Positions 10,204 to 18,649 of a DNA stretch of 24,000 nucleotides are shown piece after piece. The DNA comes from Enterococcus montenegrensis (GTDB taxonomy: Bacteria > Bacillota > Bacilli > Lactobacillales > Enterococcaceae). The notes under the pieces were generated by a model. The model was not told the origin of the DNA and did not search any database. It saw nothing but the letters and a program-made list of their open reading frames with translations. Positions within the stretch are counted from its first letter, which is position 1. The number at the start of each line of letters is the position of its first letter. The stretch is from the NCBI RefSeq assembly GCF_029983095.1, contig NZ_CP120467.1:2778933-2802932 (forward strand), given 5' to 3'. The translations under genes and the position numbers were made by a program.

Positions 10204-10245
10204 AAAAAAAACATAGACCAAGTCATTTACATAACTTAGCCTATG
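10204..10245 (-). terminator. Rho-independent terminator closing the tldR/gRNA locus
   Basis: On the minus strand: CATAGGCTAAGT-TATGTAAATG-ACTTGGTCTATG (12 bp, 2 G:U), followed by T8 (10211-10204). Confidence 0.75.
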
Positions 10246-10464
10246 CCCCAGCCTCTTTTTAAAGAAGCTGACAATGGTTTATCATAATTAGTGAGCGGAT
10301 TCCTAGAAACAAAAGTGCTGGTGCACTTTTTATATACCCAAGGCGATCCCTGGAGCCCCTTCCAGTTCTTAAAAAAGAAACACTTTGCAGTTAGTGTTTC
10401 TTTTTTTATCTGTCGGAAATAGTTTTTCAATCAAATTCTCTTAAACTAAAAAAATTTTCTAATT
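10246..10464 (-). ncRNA. Candidate TldR guide RNA (omega-RNA-derived scaffold plus guide). Boundaries are not resolved, and the scaffold may begin inside the tldR 3' end (to about 10660).
   Basis: About 220 nt of non-coding sequence lies immediately 3' of a TnpB-like ORF, which is the canonical omega-RNA position. It has dense local hairpins: CTGGA-AGGGGC-TCCAG, CCAGGG-ATCG-CCTTGG, AAAAGTGC-ACCA-GCACTTTT and CAGCTTCT-TTAAAA-AGAGGCTG. It is locally GC-richer than the flanks and is bounded by a terminator. There is no credible ORF. Confidence 0.5.
10371..10407. terminator. Palindromic A/T-flanked hairpin (bidirectional terminator shape) inside the post-tldR non-coding region
   Basis: AAAAAAGAAACACT-TTGCAGTT-AGTGTTTCTTTTTT(T). 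It could terminate tldR mRNA and a short gRNA, or it could be a scaffold stem. Confidence 0.45.
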
Positions 10465-11550
10465 TTAGTTGGCTTTTTGCTTTGAACAAAAGACTAACTC
10501 TTTTTCATACCAATCGGCTTTATATTTCAATTTCAAAAGGAGACGATTCCAGTCACTTAAAGTAAATTTCTCTTCAATATTTTGCAAAACTGGGGTACTT
10601 TGATTATTTTTCTGCGTTTTAAGGGCTTTGTTGCCCTTGTTTTTTGTTTCATCGTCTCCTGCTGCTGGCATTGTGACCACGATACAATCAAATTGGCGCA
10701 CAAGAGCAATCGACAGTTGTTCTGTAAAGTCTTCTTTTTGCTTCATTTTGCGGATATATAATTGTTGGAGGCGCAATTTTTGTTTTTGATAATTTTTAGC
10801 TTGTTCCAACTTTACATTGCGTCGCTGTGCACTCTTAGCTCGGATGGCAAGGCGCCGCTGCGCTTTTTTTAGCTGCGCTAAAAGTTGCACTTGGCAAAGC
10901 GTCGGTATGCCGCGCACTGCCACACTTGGCTCAATTAGTGTTGTCCCATTATAGGTAATTTCAATTTTGCTACCGGTTTTTGGCAAAGCAGTACTATCTT
11001 CTTCACATAATAAAGAAACATAAAATTCCTGCCGATTTTTAGCAGAGATAGTGGCCGAGCGAATTTTTCCCGTCACATTACGATGTTGATGCAACAAAAC
11101 TTTACTTTTTAACTTTGGAAGCTTCAAGCCATCTTTTTCAAGATAAATAGTATGGCCTTGATTATTTGTAGTATAAGACTGCCACGCACTTTTTTTGCTC
11201 TTTAGTTTCGGATAACTGGCATGGCCGCGATAATAATTTTGAAAGGCTTTTTCCAAGTTACGTTGCGCATTAGCCAAAGCTAAACTATCCGTCGCTTTTA
11301 AAAACGAATACTCCTTTTTTAGTTTAGCTGGCGTTAACTTTTGCGTCTTTAACCGCTCTGAAGCTGGATTTGTAAAAGTTTCGCTGTTATCTTGATAGTT
11401 TGTCTGCCGCAGTGTCAATAACGTGTTATAAGTAAAACGAACACAGCCAAAAGTTTGAATAAAAAATTGTTTTTGCGCTTCATCAGGATAAAGCGCAAAT
11501 TTATAAGCTTTTAATATTTTAATTGGTACCTGCCTCCCCTCACTGATCAT
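10465..11550 (-). CDS. tldR: TnpB-like nuclease-dead protein (TldR-type RNA-guided DNA-binding repressor candidate), oppF-associated
   Basis: 361 aa. The N-terminus KAYKFALYPDEAQKQFFIQTFGCVRFTYN is the OrfB_IS605/TnpB signature. FYVSLLCEE precedes the RuvC-I position, where GIDLG is replaced by KIEIT (D to E197). The RuvC-II motif IxIEDLNVKG is replaced by IVVTMPAAG (E to T293). The ORF stops 12 aa after YKADWYEKEL, so the zinc finger and the RuvC-III DRDxNAAxNI motif are absent. No tnpA is nearby. The start codon is uncertain because GAGGGGAGG lies inside the first codons. Confidence 0.8.
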   Translation of the reverse strand: MISEGRQVPIKILKAYKFALYPDEAQKQFFIQTFGCVRFTYNTLLTLRQTNYQDNSETFTNPASERLKTQKLTPAKLKKEYSFLKATDSLALANAQRNLEKAFQNYYRGHASYPKLKSKKSAWQSYTTNNQGHTIYLEKDGLKLPKLKSKVLLHQHRNVTGKIRSATISAKNRQEFYVSLLCEEDSTALPKTGSKIEITYNGTTLIEPSVAVRGIPTLCQVQLLAQLKKAQRRLAIRAKSAQRRNVKLEQAKNYQKQKLRLQQLYIRKMKQKEDFTEQLSIALVRQFDCIVVTMPAAGDDETKNKGNKALKTQKNNQSTPVLQNIEEKFTLSDWNRLLLKLKYKADWYEKELVFCSKQKAN

Positions 11551-11572
11551 TACTTCAGTTGTGGTGGCTTTT

Positions 11573-11616
11573 GGTAGGGACGTTCCCCTTGTCCCACCTA
11601 ACCTTACCTAACCTAA
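11573..11616 (-). repeat. Hairpin plus (TTAGG)-like pentamer tract immediately upstream of tldR
   Basis: On the minus strand: TTAGG TTAGG TAAGG TTAGG (11616-11597), running into the hairpin GGTGGGAC-AAGGGGAAC-GTCCCTACC (11598-11573). Confidence 0.6.
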
Positions 11617-11626
11617 CAAATTTTTT

Positions 11627-11750
11627 AAAAGAAAAGCTGAATGAACTTGGTCAACTCGCTAGCAATAAGGCGAAATCTTGATAAATTGTTCTTCAAATTT
11701 ATCAAGATTTTGACTTATTGTCGCCGAGAGTTAGTTCATAAAGCTAGACA
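11627..11750 (+). repeat. Palindromic intergenic repeat unit A (REP/MITE-like, reminiscent of Enterococcus EFAR elements)
   Basis: 124-bp unit AAAAGAAAAGCTGAATGAAC...GTTCATAAAGCTAGACA that folds as a long imperfect hairpin. It is about 80 percent identical (by eye) to 16099-16222. Confidence 0.8.
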
Positions 11751-11870
11751 AAAAGAAAAGCTGAATGGATCGTTTAGCCCTGAGCCATAAGATCAAAATT
11801 TGCTAAAATGCCTTTTTCATTTTCGTAAATTTTAGCTTATGCCCGAAGGGCTGATTCATGAAGCTAGACA
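11751..11870 (+). repeat. Palindromic intergenic repeat unit B (same termini, divergent core)
   Basis: It starts AAAAGAAAAGCTGAATGG and ends TTCATGAAGCTAGACA. The interior is again a long imperfect palindrome (GCCCTGAGCCATAAG... / ...CTTATGCCCGAAGGGC). Confidence 0.7.
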
Positions 11871-11911
11871 GCTAGAAAAGCTGATTGAACTTTCTCAGTC
11901 CGCAAGAATCC
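11871..11911 (+). repeat. Partial third repeat unit abutting the oppF stop
   Basis: GCTAGAAAAGCTGATTGAAC repeats the unit's 5' terminus and is then truncated. Confidence 0.55.
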
Positions 11912-11913
11912 AA

Positions 11914-12867
11914 TTACAGTGCCACTTGGCTTTGCGTCGTTTTTTGCTGTAATTTTGCTTGGTACATGGTAATTTCATCTTCTGAACAATAAATATAATG
12001 TCCTTCTGCAATTTCATGCATTCCTCGCTGTTTGCCATCATCAGGTTGGGCCTGATATTTAATCCGCTTGCGATTACGTTCATGGTCTGGATCTGGTAAT
12101 GGAATTGCCGACAGCAAACTTTCCGTATATGGATGAACGCCGTGATTATAAATGGCATCACTGGTACCCACTTCCAGCAATTTGCCTAAGTGCATAACAC
12201 CAATGCGATCACTGATATGTTTTACCATCGACAAATCATGGGCGATAAATAAATACGTCAAATTTTGCTGTTCTTGCAAGTCTTGCAATAAATTTACCAC
12301 TTGGGCTTGAATGGAAACATCCAAAGCTGAAATTGGTTCATCACAAATAATAAATTTTGGTTTTACGGCTAAGGCGCGGGCAATACCGATACGTTGCCGT
12401 TGTCCGCCGGAAAATTCATGGGGATAACGCGTTCCATGACTGGGATTTAACCCCACCGTTTCTAACAGTTCATCCACTTGGGCATTGCGTTCTTTTTCAT
12501 TTTTGGCAAGACCATTAATATCAATGCCTTCTGCGATAATGTCCCGCACTTTCATGCGAGGATTTAAAGAGGCATACGGATCTTGAAAAATCATCTGTAC
12601 ATCGCGACGAAATGTTTTTAAGCCTTCTTTGCCTTTAATTTTCATCACATCTTGGCCAGCAAAATCAATTTCTCCATCAGTTGGCGTATTTAAGCGGATA
12701 ATCGTGCGCCCGGTGGTGGATTTGCCACTACCGGATTCTCCCACTAAGCCAAAAGTCTCGCCTTCGTAAATGTGAAAGCTAATATCATCCACTGCTTTGA
12801 CTTCGTCTTTACGTCCGACATTGAAGTATTGTTTCAAGTGAGTTACGTTTAATAAAACTTTTTTCAC
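11914..12867 (-). CDS. oppF: Oligopeptide ABC transporter ATP-binding protein OppF
   Basis: Walker [10 protein letters not shown], signature FSGGQRQR, Walker [13 protein letters not shown], and the oligopeptide/dipeptide C-terminal domain (HPYT). GTG start with GGAGG 7 nt upstream. Confidence 0.9.
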
Positions 12868-12879
12868 GCGGCTACCTCC

Positions 12880-13929
12880 TTAGGCTTCTTGTTTTTCTTT
12901 GAAAATTTCCCAACGACGAACAATTTCGGCCGGTGGGGTTACTTTAGGGGCTTGTGGTGCTAAGAGCCACGTTGCCGCTTTGTGGGTTTCAGAGACGTCA
13001 AAATATGGTGGTGCTTGCTCGGTATCGATTTTTAAAGCAAATTCATTACGAGGATAAAAAGCGTCCCCTTTTGGTGGTTGCAGTAAATCTGGTGGCGAAC
13101 CTGGAATAGCATATAGGCGTTCTTCGCCCCCTTCTAAAGTCGGCATTGAACCTAACAGCCCCCATGTATACGGATGTTGCGGGTTGTAAAAAATTTCTTC
13201 TGCCGTTCCAACTTCGATAATTCTGCCCCCATACATGACTGCCACGCGATCAGCCACGTTTGCCACAACACCTAAGTCATGGGTGATAAAAATGATCGAC
13301 GTGTTAATTTTTTTCTGAATATCTTTCATCAACTCTAAAATTTGGGCTTGAATTGTTACATCCAAAGCGGTCGTTGGTTCATCAGCAATCAGAACTTCCG
13401 GGTAGCAAATAAGCGCAATGGCAATTACGATCCGTTGCCGTTGTCCACCGGAAAATTGGTGGGGATAGTTTTTCAATCGTTTTTCAGCATTGGGAATACC
13501 AACTAAGTTTAACAATTCCAATGCGGAAGCTAAGGCCTCTTTTTTAGACACTTTGTTGTGAATAATCAAAGACTCCGCAACTTGTTTGCCAATTGGCATG
13601 GTTGGATCTAAAGAGGTCATGGGATCTTGGAAAATCATCGCAATTTCCTTACCTCGAATCTTCTGCATTTCTTTTTCCGATTTTTTGACAATATCGGAAT
13701 TTTTAAAAATAATTTCACCCTTATCAATATTGGCGTTACTGGCTAAAAGTCCCATGATACTGCGAGTAGTTACCGATTTACCGGAACCTGACTCCCCTAC
13801 AATCGCCAAAGTCTCTCCTTTATAAAGGTCAAAACTAACATTGCGGATTGCGCGGACTGTTCCCGCATAAGTATCAAAGGAGATTTCCAAATCTTTAACT
13901 TCTAATACTTTTTCTGGCATCATCATCAC
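12880..13929 (-). CDS. oppD: Oligopeptide ABC transporter ATP-binding protein OppD
   Basis: Walker [37 protein letters not shown]. It overlaps the oppC stop by 4 nt (ATGA). Confidence 0.9.
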   Translation of the reverse strand: MMMMPEKVLEVKDLEISFDTYAGTVRAIRNVSFDLYKGETLAIVGESGSGKSVTTRSIMGLLASNANIDKGEIIFKNSDIVKKSEKEMQKIRGKEIAMIFQDPMTSLDPTMPIGKQVAESLIIHNKVSKKEALASALELLNLVGIPNAEKRLKNYPHQFSGGQRQRIVIAIALICYPEVLIADEPTTALDVTIQAQILELMKDIQKKINTSIIFITHDLGVVANVADRVAVMYGGRIIEVGTAEEIFYNPQHPYTWGLLGSMPTLEGGEERLYAIPGSPPDLLQPPKGDAFYPRNEFALKIDTEQAPPYFDVSETHKAATWLLAPQAPKVTPPAEIVRRWEIFKEKQEA

Positions 13930-14969
13930 TCTTTCATTTTCGGATCAAAGGCATCACGAAGACCATCAGCTAGTAAGTTGAAGGCAATCATAATGACAGA
14001 TAACGTAACTGCTGGTACCCACAATAGGTAAGGCAGATATTGGAAGGTTTTATACCCGTCACTTAACATTGTACCCAGTGAAGCATTCGGTGGTGTTAAA
14101 CCTAAACCGATAAAGCTCAAGAAGGCTTCAAAGAAAATCGCCGTTGGAATACTGAACATCATCTGGACAATAATCACGCTGGAGATGTTGGGCAAAATAT
14201 GTTTAAAGGCTATTTTGAAATTACTTTCCCCTAAAGTTTGGGCAGCCAACACAAATTCTTGGTCTTTTAATTTCAGCGTCTGTGCCCGAACGATCCGCGC
14301 CATTGGAATCCAGTTAGTGATGGCCATGGCAGCAATAATCGATGGAATACCCGGTTCAAAAACGACCAACATTAAAATCATCACAACTAAGTTTGGAATA
14401 CCAGAAAGAATTTCCAAAATACGTTGCATTAACGTATCCACTGTACCGCCTTTTAAACCAGAGATTAATCCGTAAGTAACACCAAAAATAATGTCGAACA
14501 TCGCCGCGATAAAGGCGATCAATAAAGAGACCCGCGTTCCCATCAAAAGACGGCTCAAAACATCACGGCCCAATCCGTCAGTCCCAAAATAATAATTCAA
14601 ATTATCCGGTACATTCGCTGCGGCATATTTATCGACTAATTGTCCGCCAACCATTGCTTTTCCGTTTAAGCCATTAATATCAATCCCAGGAATTCGTGGT
14701 GGCAAATTCATATAAGCAACATTTTGCTTCGTGGGATTATGGGGTGAAAAGAAAATTGAAATAATCGAAATCACAATAATCACAAGTAGTATCGCCATAC
14801 ATACGACCGCTGCTTTATTTTTTCGAAGGCGCCGCCAAGAATCTTGTAAGAAAGTCAAAGACGGAGCGGCAATCATTTCCCGTTCTTTAATGGTACTACC
14901 GTGGTACAGCTCAAATTCTGACGCCGGGATTTTGGCAATAGTATCATATTTTGGTTTTGCATTTTCCAT
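13926..14969 (-). CDS. oppC: Oligopeptide ABC transporter permease OppC
   Basis: 347-aa polytopic ORF with an OppC-type N-terminal extension and BPD_transp_1 core. Translationally coupled to oppB (TAATG overlap). Confidence 0.9.
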   Translation of the reverse strand: MENAKPKYDTIAKIPASEFELYHGSTIKEREMIAAPSLTFLQDSWRRLRKNKAAVVCMAILLVIIVISIISIFFSPHNPTKQNVAYMNLPPRIPGIDINGLNGKAMVGGQLVDKYAAANVPDNLNYYFGTDGLGRDVLSRLLMGTRVSLLIAFIAAMFDIIFGVTYGLISGLKGGTVDTLMQRILEILSGIPNLVVMILMLVVFEPGIPSIIAAMAITNWIPMARIVRAQTLKLKDQEFVLAAQTLGESNFKIAFKHILPNISSVIIVQMMFSIPTAIFFEAFLSFIGLGLTPPNASLGTMLSDGYKTFQYLPYLLWVPAVTLSVIMIAFNLLADGLRDAFDPKMKE

Positions 14970-15910
14970 TAGCCTTTGCTCCCTCCTGACACGCGGATTC
15001 GTGGATCAACGATGCCGTATAATAAGTCAACCACTAAAATGACAATAATCAACATTGCCGAGTACAAGACGGTTACCGCCATAATGGTTGGATAGTCGTT
15101 GGTGGTAATTGATTTTACAAATTGCTCCCCAATACCAGGGATCGCAAAAATATTTTCTACTACTAAAGAACCAGTCATTAAAGCAACTGCTAAAGGTCCG
15201 AGTAATGTCATCAAGGGAATCAAGCTATTACGCAAGCCGTGTTTAAAGGCGATTTCCCAACGGCTTAATCCTTTAGCTCGAGCTAGTTCTACGTAATCAC
15301 TGTGCATAACTTCCACCATTTCTGTTCGAATAAAACGTGCCGAATCGGCTAAAGGCGACATTGCCAGCGCAATCGTTGGTAAAATCGTATAGGCAAAACC
15401 TTCCCACTTAGCAATCGGCAAAATGTGCAATTTAATCGCAAAAACATATTGCAGTAAAACGGCGAAGACAAAGTTTGGAATCGAACGACCCAAAATCGCA
15501 ATTAAAGTCGCTAACGTATCCACCCATGTATTTTGTTTCATGGCTGAAATCGTCCCTAAAATAATCCCCACGAAAGTCCCCAGTAAAATCGCCTGCATCC
15601 CTAATTGTAAGGAAGGTCCCACGCGACCAGCCAATAAGGCTGCAACTGGTTGATTTTTAAACTGGAAGGAAATTCCGAAATCACCTTGAAGTAAGTTTTT
15701 CAGATACGTTCCATATTGCACGATAACCGGCTTATCCAAACCCATTTGCTTATTTAACAACGCAATTTGGTCTGGGCTTAAACGTTCTGCATTGGTATAA
15801 GGCGTTCCTGGTAACATTTTTGATAAAAAGAATGTAATCGTAGCAATCAGCCACAAGGTTACCAGCATAAAAAATAGCCGTTTTAGAAAATATTTGAGAA
15901 AGTCATTCAA
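14969..15910 (-). CDS. oppB: Oligopeptide ABC transporter permease OppB
   Basis: 313 aa with an OppB/DppB-type N-terminus (FLKYFLKRLFFMLVTLW). TTG start, with GGAGGAG 7 nt upstream. Confidence 0.9.
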   Translation of the reverse strand: MNDFLKYFLKRLFFMLVTLWLIATITFFLSKMLPGTPYTNAERLSPDQIALLNKQMGLDKPVIVQYGTYLKNLLQGDFGISFQFKNQPVAALLAGRVGPSLQLGMQAILLGTFVGIILGTISAMKQNTWVDTLATLIAILGRSIPNFVFAVLLQYVFAIKLHILPIAKWEGFAYTILPTIALAMSPLADSARFIRTEMVEVMHSDYVELARAKGLSRWEIAFKHGLRNSLIPLMTLLGPLAVALMTGSLVVENIFAIPGIGEQFVKSITTNDYPTIMAVTVLYSAMLIIVILVVDLLYGIVDPRIRVSGGSKG

Positions 15911-16257: not shown

Positions 16258-16313
16258 TTTAGCTAAAAAACTTGCCCTGTATAAAAGCTACAAAAACCAA
16301 CAAGGAGTCCATT

Positions 16314-16655
16314 ATGAAAAAATATCCTCCCGCGTTTATTGCCGTCATTATCTTCGTTATCGCTATTATCTGGGGTCTGATCAAAAAAAATTTAAGTCTG
16401 ATCATGTTATCAGACACTCTGTTTATGTTGGGACTGCCTTTTTTGATTATTGGCATTTTGTTATGGGTTTTTTCCTCTGGCTTCTTCGATACTTTTCAAC
16501 GATCCATGCATGAAGCTGTAGGAAGAAAGCAAAAGAAAAAAGCTAACTATACGCCTTTATCACAAGTTGGCCAGGGTGTGTATCTTTTTTGGCTAAAAAT
16601 TGCCGGTATCATCTTAGTCTGCTCGCTCATTTTTTATGCCATTGGCAGCATTTAA
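16314..16655 (+). CDS. Small membrane protein (possibly DUF3899 family)
   Basis: AAGGAG lies 6 nt upstream of the ATG at 16314. 113 aa with 3-4 hydrophobic helices and a basic loop (GRKQKKKANY). A strong terminator follows. Confidence 0.65.
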   Translation: MKKYPPAFIAVIIFVIAIIWGLIKKNLSLIMLSDTLFMLGLPFLIIGILLWVFSSGFFDTFQRSMHEAVGRKQKKKANYTPLSQVGQGVYLFWLKIAGIILVCSLIFYAIGSI

Positions 16656-16704
16656 TAATTATTAATTTCTAAAGTATGACTACACCAATAGCAAAAATAG
16701 TTGC

Positions 16705-16732
16705 AAGAGGCTGGCAGTGCCAGCCTCTTTTT
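16705..16732. terminator. Bidirectional terminator between the convergent membrane-protein gene and oppA paralog 1
   Basis: AAGAGGCTGG-CAGTG-CCAGCCTCTT followed by TTT on the plus strand. A T-rich tract (CTATTTTTGC) follows on the minus strand. Confidence 0.8.
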
Positions 16733-16775: not shown

Positions 16776-18449
16776 TTATTCGGTTACATATGTCCATTTG
16801 TAATCCCATGAAGCGCCGGCAGCGTGATGAACGATACCTTTTACTTTCGGATTAATCATGTGACCTTCTGCTTTTTGGAAAACGCCGATAACTCCAGCAG
16901 TTGAGCTGATAATTTTATCTGCTTCTTGCAAATTAGCCCAACGTTTCATCGGATCACCTGCATTGGTCGTATTAGATTCTTTCACAACTTTATCGTATTC
17001 TTCATTTGACCATTGCCCACGGTTATATGAATTCCCTGTAACAAATAAATCTGTAAAGCTTGATGGGTCTGAGTAGTCAGCACCCCAACCACCTAATACC
17101 ATGTCGAATTCACCGTTATTTGAACGATCTAACCGAACAGAAAATGGTACTGGCGTTGGTTTAATTTTGATACCAGACAATGTTTCTTCGAGTGTGCTTT
17201 GCAAATATTCTAAAACTTTTTTAGTTCCGTCATCGTCAGAAGCGACAATATCAAAGGTAAAGCTATCTTTTCCTAAAGCTTTTTTAGCCTTTTCCCAGTG
17301 GTCTTTTGCCTTTTTCGCATCAAAGCTGACCAAATCGCCCGCCTCTTTGGTGAAATCTTCGTTGGTTTCTGGATTTTTAGACATATCCGATGGAATCAAA
17401 CCAGTAGAAGCAACCGAGCCATCGCCTAAAACAGAATTAACGATTGCATTGCGGTCAATTGCGTAAGAGATTGCCAAACGCAAATCTTCATTCATAAATG
17501 GTGAATCTTCTTTTCGTTGATTTAATTCTAGATAAGAAGTGCGGGCTTCTTTAACCGATTGGAAAGCTTCTTGATTGGCATTTTGTTGTGCCAATTCACC
17601 GGTTAAAATTGCATCGTCTGTTTGTCCGTCATTAAATAAGTTCAACCCTGTGGAGGATTCTTTCACTACGCTGACTTTGACAGCGTCTAATTTTACTGTA
17701 TCTTTATCCCAGTAAGTATCGTTTTTCTTGTATTCCCACTCTGTATCAGTACCAGGACCGTCAAATCCGGCTAAAACAAATGGACCGTTGTAAACAGAAT
17801 TTTCTGATTTTGTAGCAAATTTGTCGCCATTTTTTTCAACAACTTTTTGTGGTTGTGGGAAAAATGAAGGGAATGCGAATAAATAATCCATATAAGGCGT
17901 TGGACGCGTTAACGTAATTTCCAATTCGTAGTCGTTGACAGCCTTAATGCCTAACTCAGATTTATCTTTTTTGCCGGCAGTAATATCGGCTGCATTCACA
18001 ACGGGTTCATATAAATAAGCATATTCAGATGCGGTTTTGGCATCGACTGTTCGTTGCCATGCAAAGACATAATCAGAAGCCTTAACGGGTGTTCCGTCAG
18101 ACCATTTGGCATCTTCTCTTAATTTAATCGTATATTTCAAACCGTCTTCACTAACTTTGGCTTCTTCAGCGGCACCAGCTGGCACTGGCTTGCTATCTTT
18201 GTCCAAACGATAAATTCCTTCGTAGACATTGTTTAACGCAGTGAAACTAATGGTATCTGTCGCAAGTGATAAATCAGCACTCGGCATTTCTTGTAAGACA
18301 GAAACTCTAAATTCTTGTTTGTCCGCTTCTTTACCAGAACCGCCTGCAGCACTGCTGCCATCTGTTGTGCCACTACCGCTGCCACATGCTGATAACACAA
18401 CACCGCAGACAGCAATAACGCCAAATAATGATGTCTTCTTCATTTTCAT
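16776..18449 (-). CDS. oppA: Oligopeptide-binding lipoprotein OppA (paralog 1)
   Basis: 557 aa with signal peptide plus lipobox (VVLSAC) and a family 5 SBP fold signature (FTALNNVYEGIYRLD, WSDGTPV). Confidence 0.9.
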   Translation of the reverse strand: MKMKKTSLFGVIAVCGVVLSACGSGSGTTDGSSAAGGSGKEADKQEFRVSVLQEMPSADLSLATDTISFTALNNVYEGIYRLDKDSKPVPAGAAEEAKVSEDGLKYTIKLREDAKWSDGTPVKASDYVFAWQRTVDAKTASEYAYLYEPVVNAADITAGKKDKSELGIKAVNDYELEITLTRPTPYMDYLFAFPSFFPQPQKVVEKNGDKFATKSENSVYNGPFVLAGFDGPGTDTEWEYKKNDTYWDKDTVKLDAVKVSVVKESSTGLNLFNDGQTDDAILTGELAQQNANQEAFQSVKEARTSYLELNQRKEDSPFMNEDLRLAISYAIDRNAIVNSVLGDGSVASTGLIPSDMSKNPETNEDFTKEAGDLVSFDAKKAKDHWEKAKKALGKDSFTFDIVASDDDGTKKVLEYLQSTLEETLSGIKIKPTPVPFSVRLDRSNNGEFDMVLGGWGADYSDPSSFTDLFVTGNSYNRGQWSNEEYDKVVKESNTTNAGDPMKRWANLQEADKIISSTAGVIGVFQKAEGHMINPKVKGIVHHAAGASWDYKWTYVTE

Positions 18450-18513: not shown

Positions 18514-18542
18514 ATTTTAATCAATAATTATTAAAAAAGCAA
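18514..18542 (-). promoter_or_regulatory. Proximal sigma-A promoter candidate for oppA paralog 1
   Basis: On the minus strand: TTGCTT (18542-18537), 17 nt, TAAAAT (18519-18514). Confidence 0.45.
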
Positions 18543-18573
18543 TACTTTATTCATTAAAAAACAAATATATATA

Positions 18574-18588
18574 AATTTTCTGATAATT
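18574..18588. promoter_or_regulatory. CodY box (14/15 match)
   Basis: AATTTTCTGATAATT versus AATTTTCWGAAAATT. Confidence 0.55.
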
Positions 18589-18649
18589 CAAAAAACAAGA
18601 CGTGAAATTTACGTGAAGAAAATTACTTACAATCAAATTCTTGAAAAGT

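Follow-up and report, generated by a model that had tools for sequence, protein, structure and literature searches.

A probable guide RNA gene downstream of an oppF-associated, nuclease-dead TnpB-like protein in Enterococcus montenegrensis

What is encoded by the short stretch of DNA that follows the tldR gene of Enterococcus montenegrensis? The window analysed here is a stretch of 24,000 nucleotides (nt) from contig NZ_CP120467.1 (assembly GCF_029983095.1, positions 2,778,933 to 2,802,932 of the forward strand), and an initial annotation of its sequence had proposed a candidate guide RNA locus, 3' of tldR, between positions 10204 and 10660. It is suggested here that the region after tldR is very probably the guide RNA (gRNA) gene of an oppF-associated TldR, a RuvC-dead TnpB-like repressor. 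TldR-gRNA systems associated with oppF have already been published (Wiegand 2023, bioRxiv 10.1101/2023.11.30.569447; Xiao 2026, bioRxiv 10.64898/2026.09.22.753285), and the locus is a member of this group and not a new system. The whole interval had been described as non-coding; its part from 10465 to 10660 is in fact tldR coding sequence. All the hairpins that had been listed are present at their positions on the minus strand.

Comparison with related loci proved informative in placing the element. We fetched 56 loci encoding TldR relatives, one genome per species, and BLAST identified one block of about 95 nt, right after tldR, that is conserved at 70-95% identity in 52 of them and is bordered by diverging flanks. 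A covariance model built from the orthologues gave a single match in the window, 10370..10276, with 99 bits, and one match right after tldR in the same proportion of the related loci (52/56). The gRNA of Enterococcus faecalis Efa1, which has been mapped by sequencing of immunoprecipitated RNA (RIP-seq) and by cryo-electron microscopy (cryo-EM), consists of a 97-nt scaffold, starting AAGAACUG and ending ...GUCCAC, and a 9-11-nt guide (Wiegand 2023; Xiao 2026). The ends of the window scaffold match those of Efa1: AAGAACUGG begins at 10370 and GCUCAC ends at 10291, so that the 5' end (AAGAACUG) and the 3' junction CAC-UAAUUAU (the hyphen marks the boundary between scaffold and guide) are the same as in the mapped RNA. 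This junction is invariant in 53 loci and the 15 nt that follow it (TAATTATGAnAAACC) are almost so; beyond them the sequence differs by species, most having a hairpin there, often with a U-run after it. For Efa1, Eca, Emu, Efa2, Ece and Tos, the guides predicted in the literature all begin TAATTAT and start at the same point. Because the Efa1 scaffold ends, the window sequence and these published guides agree, the scaffold was placed at 10370..10291 and the start of the guide at 10290. In relatives the mature guide is 9-16 nt long (Wiegand 2023; Xiao 2026). The elements of the region are as follows.

10371..10464, minus strand: AT-rich spacer of 94 nt (GC 0.22) from the tldR stop to the scaffold, ending in an A7/T6-flanked hairpin (10407..10371)
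10291..10370, minus strand: gRNA scaffold of 80 nt, AAGAACUGG...GCUCAC, by homology to the mapped Efa1 scaffold
10350..10365, minus strand: 5' hairpin P1, CUGGA (10365..10361) with UCCAG (10354..10350), loop AGGGGC
10293..10358, minus strand: putative pseudoknot, loop bases GGGC (10358..10355) with GCUC (10296..10293), the latter just before the AC that precedes the guide
10302..10343, minus strand: long composite hairpin, with lower stem CCUUGGG (10343..10337) paired to UUUCUAG G (10308..10302)
10330..10323 with 10318..10311, minus strand: upper stem of the composite hairpin, AAAAGUGC with GCACUUUU
10276..10290, minus strand: guide UAAUUAUGA (10290..10282), with the genus-wide conserved 15-mer UAAUUAUGAUAAACC extending to 10276
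10250..10271, minus strand: first 3' hairpin, CAGCUUCU/AGAGGCUG, without a U-tail (-11.8 kcal/mol, z = -4.6)
10204..10249, minus strand: intrinsic terminator, a long stem (10249..10208) and U8 (T8 at 10211..10204)

The structure of the scaffold was examined on an alignment with Efa1 and 51 loci. RNAalifold, applied to the MAFFT alignment, recovered the 5' hairpin only, because the variable stem was misaligned, and the structure was therefore set by hand as four helices, whose pairs were counted both in the MAFFT alignment and after realignment with a covariance model. Over 52 distinct sequences, 92% of cells are paired, and double-sided changes occur in 11 pairs. Covariation scores 0.215, whereas shuffles score 0.106 and none of 500 reaches the observed value; the signal collapses when the pairing partners are slid by one to three columns. 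In P1, 94% of cells are paired and three of the five pairs show change in both partners (CUAGU/ACUAG and CUGAC/GUUAG are examples), and in the upper stem compensatory change affects five of seven pairs, again with 92% of cells paired. The lower stem is mostly invariant (87% paired) and has one U-U mismatch in the window. A pseudoknot, two stems and a triplex have been reported from the cryo-EM of Efa1 (Xiao 2026), and it is from the pattern of substitution that GGGC and GCUC are suggested to be the bases forming the pseudoknot: 98% of cells are paired, and the two variable pairs, which are the cleanest case of covariation, switch between AU, GC and GU in step (column pair 15-100 is AU in 26 sequences, GC in 14 and GU in 12; pair 16-99 is GC in 35 and AU in 17). 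The scaffold is accordingly homologous to the mapped Efa1 scaffold both in sequence and in structure, stems and pseudoknot included. Taken by itself it is not unusually stable (z = -1.2); the whole 271-nt region has a z of -5.8, which is due to the three hairpins that flank the scaffold.

These results bear directly on what had been proposed from the sequence. That a guide RNA locus lies 3' of tldR is borne out by conservation and compensatory change in 52 loci, and the comparison of orthologues that had been recommended did find a conserved scaffold, in which two stems and the pseudoknot have undergone compensatory change. The block that had been called locally GC-rich is so (0.49 at 10291..10370, against 0.22 in the spacer and 0.38 in the window), and it corresponds to the scaffold core as had been considered, down to 10291, its fourth hairpin lying beyond the guide. 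Two of the four hairpins assigned to this block, CTGGA/TCCAG (10365..10350) and AAAAGTGC/GCACTTTT (10329..10310), are true scaffold stems and the other two are not. The proposed hairpin CCAGGG/CCTTGG reuses the CCAG of P1, so that it and CTGGA/TCCAG cannot both form; covariation supports only the latter, and most species have CCTAGG, which breaks the pairing of the former. The fourth, CAGCTTCT/AGAGGCTG (10271..10250), is a real hairpin which, since it lies 3' of the guide, does not belong to the scaffold. It had also been expected that the scaffold might overlap the tldR reading frame, as occurs in TnpB loci, and no overlap is found here.

The statement that no credible open reading frame (ORF) follows the tldR stop needs some qualification, as a 64-aa ORF with a TTG start (10430..10236, minus strand) exists mechanically, and the region might in principle encode a small protein. 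We give this almost no credence. No Shine-Dalgarno-like motif was noticed before the ORF, and within its limits lie a terminator-like hairpin, the scaffold and the guide. Orthologous loci have, inside the frame, paired compensatory substitutions and indels of 1-20 nt whose lengths are not divisible by three. The conservation of this stretch is that of an RNA.

The gRNA would be expected to act with the protein encoded immediately upstream of it. This 361-aa protein matches the Pfam family HTH_OrfB_IS605 (2e-15), with a weak match to OrfB_IS605, and reaches 126 bits with the NCBIfam model guided_TnpB against a cut-off of 100; its nearest relatives in the PDB are structures of ISDra2 TnpB (8h1j and 8bf8). 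Pfam detects no zinc ribbon in it. Alignment with an active TnpB of E. cecorum and with published TldRs found none of the three RuvC catalytic residues: the first D is replaced by T, the second residue is not E, and the third has gone with the C-terminus, the segment that holds this acidic residue and the zinc finger being missing. The window TldR is a RuvC-dead, C-terminally truncated homologue of TnpB. The glutamine with which Efa1 reads the target-adjacent motif (TAM), Q116, is retained as Q131. At 357 of 361 positions (98.9%) the protein is identical to WP_206902980.1 and WP_230709759.1, which come from Enterococcus sp. MJM12 and SMC-9 and are both in the published TldR list. Its closest relative in the collection with one genome per species is that of E. 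dispar (76%), and the identical protein is found in metagenome and SRA assemblies only. The start of the gene deserves a separate comment. The annotated ATG at 11550 is preceded by a weak Shine-Dalgarno sequence only, and an in-frame ATT (11523..11521) has a strong Shine-Dalgarno-like GGGGAGG (11539..11533) 9 nt before it. This ATT may be the true start, which would give IKILKAYKF..., as in the E. saigonensis sequence.

The surroundings of tldR in the window, with the predicted target of the guide, are listed below.

18524..18535, minus strand: predicted DNA target, TAM TTTAA (18535..18531) and 7-nt seed TAATTAT (18530..18524), on the oppA sense strand
16776..18449, minus strand: oppA (SBP_bac_5, Pfam 1e-85), the predicted regulated gene
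16272..16655, plus strand: DUF3899 gene, antisense
15910..11914, minus strand: oppB, oppC, oppD and oppF, from the ORF map and Pfam
11914..12867, minus strand: oppF (Pfam ABC_tran and oligo_HPY), last gene of oppABCDF and directly upstream of tldR
10465..11550, minus strand: tldR, encoding the 361-aa TnpB-like nuclease-dead protein, from the ORF map and Pfam

The order oppA, antisense DUF3899, oppB, oppC, oppD, oppF, tldR is the published one, and the ORF map, Pfam and the RuvC alignment together place the gRNA just 3' of a gene for a nuclease-dead TnpB-like protein, a gene that comes after the oppF of an oppABCDF operon.

Where such a guide would act is suggested by a site upstream of oppA. 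The predicted target starts 86 nt before the oppA ATG (18449), and the site has the form known for the system: upstream of the cognate oppA, a TTTAA (or TTTAT) TAM and then 6 nt or more that match the guide seed. The 12-mer of TTTAA and TAATTAT occurs twice in the window where 0.05 occurrences are expected. TTTAA followed by TAATTA is present 65-86 nt upstream of oppA, on the sense strand, in every one of the 37 gRNA-bearing loci whose fetched flank takes in the oppA start, and in 0.9 Mb of loci, with both strands counted, there are only 50 such 11-mers. The initial annotation had expected the guide to co-vary with its target. Both are nearly invariant across the genus; with an invariant seed and an invariant target covariation is unavailable, and conservation takes its place. 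A promoter-like match at 18591..18564 is weak and no better than chance; it would put the target in the 5' untranslated region (5' UTR), as in E. faecalis V583. A search of metagenome contigs for a full-length target of TAM and 15 nt (TTTAATAATTATGANAAACC) returned 49 matches, mostly in low-GC contigs (0.20-0.54) and with no OppA match, which we read as chance. As a separate observation, guide positions 8-15 (GAnAAACC; 10276..10283 in the window, minus strand) are nearly invariant across most of the genus, Efa1 being the exception (TAATTATTAATGATC), and the oppA target matches positions 1-7 only.

The E. faecalis orthologue of this RNA was first catalogued simply as a small RNA (sRNA; Rfam RF02841; PMC4408782), and a genuine promoter at the weak match would place the predicted target within a transcribed 5' UTR. 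Both points would suit a trans-acting sRNA of the Ref70 type, which would need no protein and would pair with mRNAs such as the oppA 5' UTR. This explanation is nevertheless highly improbable. The guide sequence is that of the oppA sense strand and is therefore identical, not complementary, to the oppA mRNA; in 52 loci the element is found strictly together with tldR; and in E. faecalis cryo-EM and genetics have established a protein-bound RNA and TAM-dependent targeting of DNA.

A protein-bound gRNA that targets DNA upstream of oppA is the reading we prefer, and by homology with the Efa1/V583 orthologue of E. faecalis, for which RNA binding, the TTTAA TAM and repression of oppA have been shown (Wiegand 2023; Xiao 2026), it may be set out as follows. 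The primary transcript would most likely read through from tldR and end at the U8 terminator (~10204), and host RNases would trim it to a protein-protected scaffold and a guide of 9-16 nt. TldR would bind the 80-nt scaffold with its 5' hairpin, two-part long hairpin and pseudoknot, and the guide, from 10290 (UAAUUAUGA...), would bring the complex to the site 5'-TTTAA-TAATTAT-3', which lies 86 nt ahead of the oppA start codon. There TldR would recognise TTTAA and the guide would pair with the template strand. The bound complex could then block RNA polymerase and lower the expression of oppA, a mechanism demonstrated for the E. faecalis orthologue. Expression, processing and repression at the window locus are thus proposed from the behaviour of a relative.

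Several observations weigh against this reading. Contiguous identity between guide and target is 7 nt (at positions 8-9 the guide has GA and the target TG), against 9 bp in the work on Efa1. No independent gRNA promoter in the spacer passed the scan, by eye there being weak matches only (such as TTGAAA-16-TAAAAA), and the strong U6-tailed hairpin between tldR and the scaffold could terminate read-through. The window match to the Rfam model of the E. faecalis RNA, Ref70, scores 37.4 bits, far below the gathering score of 115. Lastly, no enrichment of the gRNA was seen in RIP-seq with EsaTldR, the nearest relative to have been tested (Wiegand 2023).

Some of these points would be accounted for if the scaffold were a leftover of an ancestral TnpB omega-RNA which is no longer bound or used in this subclade, the hairpins serving to terminate tldR and protect its mRNA. 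Such a relic would be consistent with the absence of enrichment with EsaTldR, with the match of only 7 contiguous nt and with the U-tailed hairpin that separates tldR from the scaffold. We consider it improbable, because the scaffold and guide are nearly invariant among the window, E. dispar and E. canintestini in spite of diverged flanks, compensatory changes keep the stems and the pseudoknot throughout the genus, and the site of TAM and seed upstream of oppA is kept in the subclade at the same distance. The Esa construct, moreover, looks mis-designed. EsaTldR (E. saigonensis VE80, WP_232061298.1) belongs to the same subclade and is 75% identical to the window TldR. Over the stretch compared, the construct has the same scaffold and guide as E. 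dispar (L001), and L001 is there about 89% identical to the window. The published predicted guide of Esa (CATTCCGGCTTC...; CATTCCGGCTTCTTTTAAAG) starts 14 nt farther 3' than the junction shared by all the other homologues (compare L001 10255..10290), and in the construct the engineered guide was placed after TAATTATGATTAAC, at the same 14 nt beyond the conserved junction. The listed Esa protein starts IQTFGC, about 30 N-terminal residues short, whereas the window encodes the full N-terminus. We infer that the offset of the guide and the short N-terminus may explain the missing enrichment.

The hairpin that stands between tldR and the scaffold requires its own explanation. It is composed of A7-GAAACACT-AACTGCAA-AGTGTTTC-T6 and occupies 10407..10371, and the A/T-flanked hairpin annotated there is real (-14.9 kcal/mol, z = -5.8, with none of 200 shuffles as stable). 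It had been thought that it might either terminate a short gRNA or be a stem of the scaffold. It is neither: it lies immediately 5' of the scaffold and ends exactly where the scaffold starts, and is therefore not part of it, and it is lineage-specific, E. canintestini lacking it and E. dispar having a different one. A hairpin just 5' of the scaffold as a feature of the whole family was considered and rejected, since the mean z over 53 loci is -0.4 and the window is an outlier. Between the window and two near-identical strains (L059 and L062), differences over the 320 nt downstream of tldR fall almost only inside the stem of this hairpin, and they keep its pairing by changing A-U to G-C (GAAACACU/AGUGUUUC to AAACGUU/AGCGUUU or GAAACGCU/AGCGCUU), which suggests that the structure is selected. 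We favour its being a leaky terminator, or a stabiliser of the 3' end of the tldR mRNA that would be left after cleavage at the scaffold boundary. On the other side of the gRNA, the first 3' hairpin (10271..10250) is retained in E. canintestini and E. dispar, and the tail that it forms with the U8 terminator is conserved in the subclade. The strong T8 terminator that had been described as closing the region does close the unit; it has 19 pairs in the scan and folds with -22.2 kcal/mol (z = -6.8), and the loss of synteny in strain L062 directly behind the T-run marks where the unit ends.

A second exact site of TAM and 7-nt seed (TTTAATAATTAT) was found at 16651..16662 on the plus strand, where it overlaps the DUF3899 stop codon; oppB lies on one side of it and the oppA terminator hairpin (16705..16729) on the other. 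Of the other loci examined, only those of E. dispar (L001) and E. canintestini (L002) conserve it. It is conceivable, if rather doubtful, that the subclade of E. dispar, E. saigonensis, E. canintestini and MJM12 is wired differently from E. faecalis, with control at two sites; the suggestion arises from the gRNA being insulated by a hairpin that is itself under apparent selection, from the two-hairpin 3' tail and from the second conserved site. Two-site control could, for example, uncouple oppA from oppBCDF-tldR or provide feedback on tldR and the gRNA itself, and under such a wiring the published negative result with Esa would be an artefact of the construct and not biology.

Two further features of these loci may be recorded. 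The intergenic region between oppF and tldR (window 11551..11913; L057 2394..3000; L059 2146..3000) is made up of units of about 122 nt, each bearing CATTCAGCTTTTCT and a long palindrome (for example with 25-nt arms at 11663-11687/11696-11720). The copy number of the unit differs between strains with identical TldR, giving gaps of 363, 607 and 855 nt, and TRF finds about six copies in L059; a run of (ACCTA)4 is present in the window at 11596..11617. In E. eurekensis, E. lemanii and E. alcedinis second TldR paralogues occur (L006 ~9906, L020 ~9927 and L056 ~9930) that have a hairpin directly after the stop, with a T-run in two of the three. No gRNA scaffold was detected at these three loci, and the same genomes also hold another tldR locus with a gRNA (L039, L005 and L007).

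The value of the locus as a discovery is low, as oppF-associated TldRs and their gRNAs have been published and tested in a native host, a structure has been solved, and TldRs 98.9% identical to this one have been catalogued. What is added is refinement: exact coordinates of scaffold and guide in a subclade of which the one member tested had failed; specific grounds for doubting the Esa construct, with its 14-nt guide offset and N-terminally short protein; covariation support for a specific pseudoknot pairing between the loop of the 5' hairpin and the four bases before the AC that precedes the guide; a link between an orphan sRNA of Rfam and the TldR gRNA; and a second candidate binding site in the subclade.

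It remains to consider the relationship of the element to known systems. The omega-RNA of TnpB (right-end element RNA, reRNA) in IS200/IS605 elements such as ISDra2 is associated with a homologous protein, lies likewise at the 3' side of the gene with its scaffold 5' and its guide 3', and also depends on a TAM. The guide of an omega-RNA is set by the flanking insertion site, whereas that of the window is fixed across the genus; the window scaffold does not overlap the ORF, and with none of the RuvC triad left the protein cannot cut DNA. No transposase domain was found among the neighbouring genes scanned, and transposon ends (LE/RE, left and right end) were not searched for. The conserved guide, the dead RuvC triad and the lack of a transposase among those neighbours set the locus apart from a canonical IS200/IS605 omega-RNA.

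A second comparison is with Rfam RF02841, Ref70 (Enterococcus sRNA 70), one of the series Ref47-Ref120 named in a 5'-end mapping study (Innocenti et al., PMC4408782). The consensus of this family (gAAGAACuGuaGGGACuaCaGG...CUAAUUAUUAgUu) is the E. faecalis Efa1 gRNA and, to judge by this identity of sequence, Ref70 is the E. faecalis orthologue of the TldR gRNA. Rfam types it as a plain sRNA, without a stated link to TldR, and neither Ref70 nor Rfam is mentioned in the two papers on TldR (Wiegand 2023; Xiao 2026). At gathering thresholds Rfam finds nothing in the whole window; in a permissive scan 10371..10279 (minus strand) aligns over the full Ref70 model with E = 3e-5, and the family seems to be too narrow to capture other species.

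The closest known system is the oppF-TldR of Efa1/V583 itself (Wiegand 2023; Xiao 2026), from which the window departs in several ways. The window TldR is 38% identical to that of Efa1 and has an insertion of about 25 aa in the RuvC remnant. Its scaffold, at 80 nt against 97 nt, is shorter because the upper stem is shorter, and it is without the 3' hairpin found in Efa1 and the E. faecium clade. The stop codon and the scaffold are separated by a 94-nt spacer with a strong hairpin, whereas in most species the scaffold lies within about 25 nt of the stop; two hairpins follow the guide in the window and one in the Efa1 system; and the contiguous match of guide to target is 7 nt against 8/9. In spite of these differences both share the same operon context of oppA, antisense DUF3899, oppBCDF, tldR and gRNA, the 5' end of the scaffold (AAGAACUG) and its core motifs (GGGAUCGCCU.GGG and UUCUAGGAA), the junction CAC-UAAUUAU, the TTTAA TAM, a target upstream of oppA and a nuclease-dead protein.

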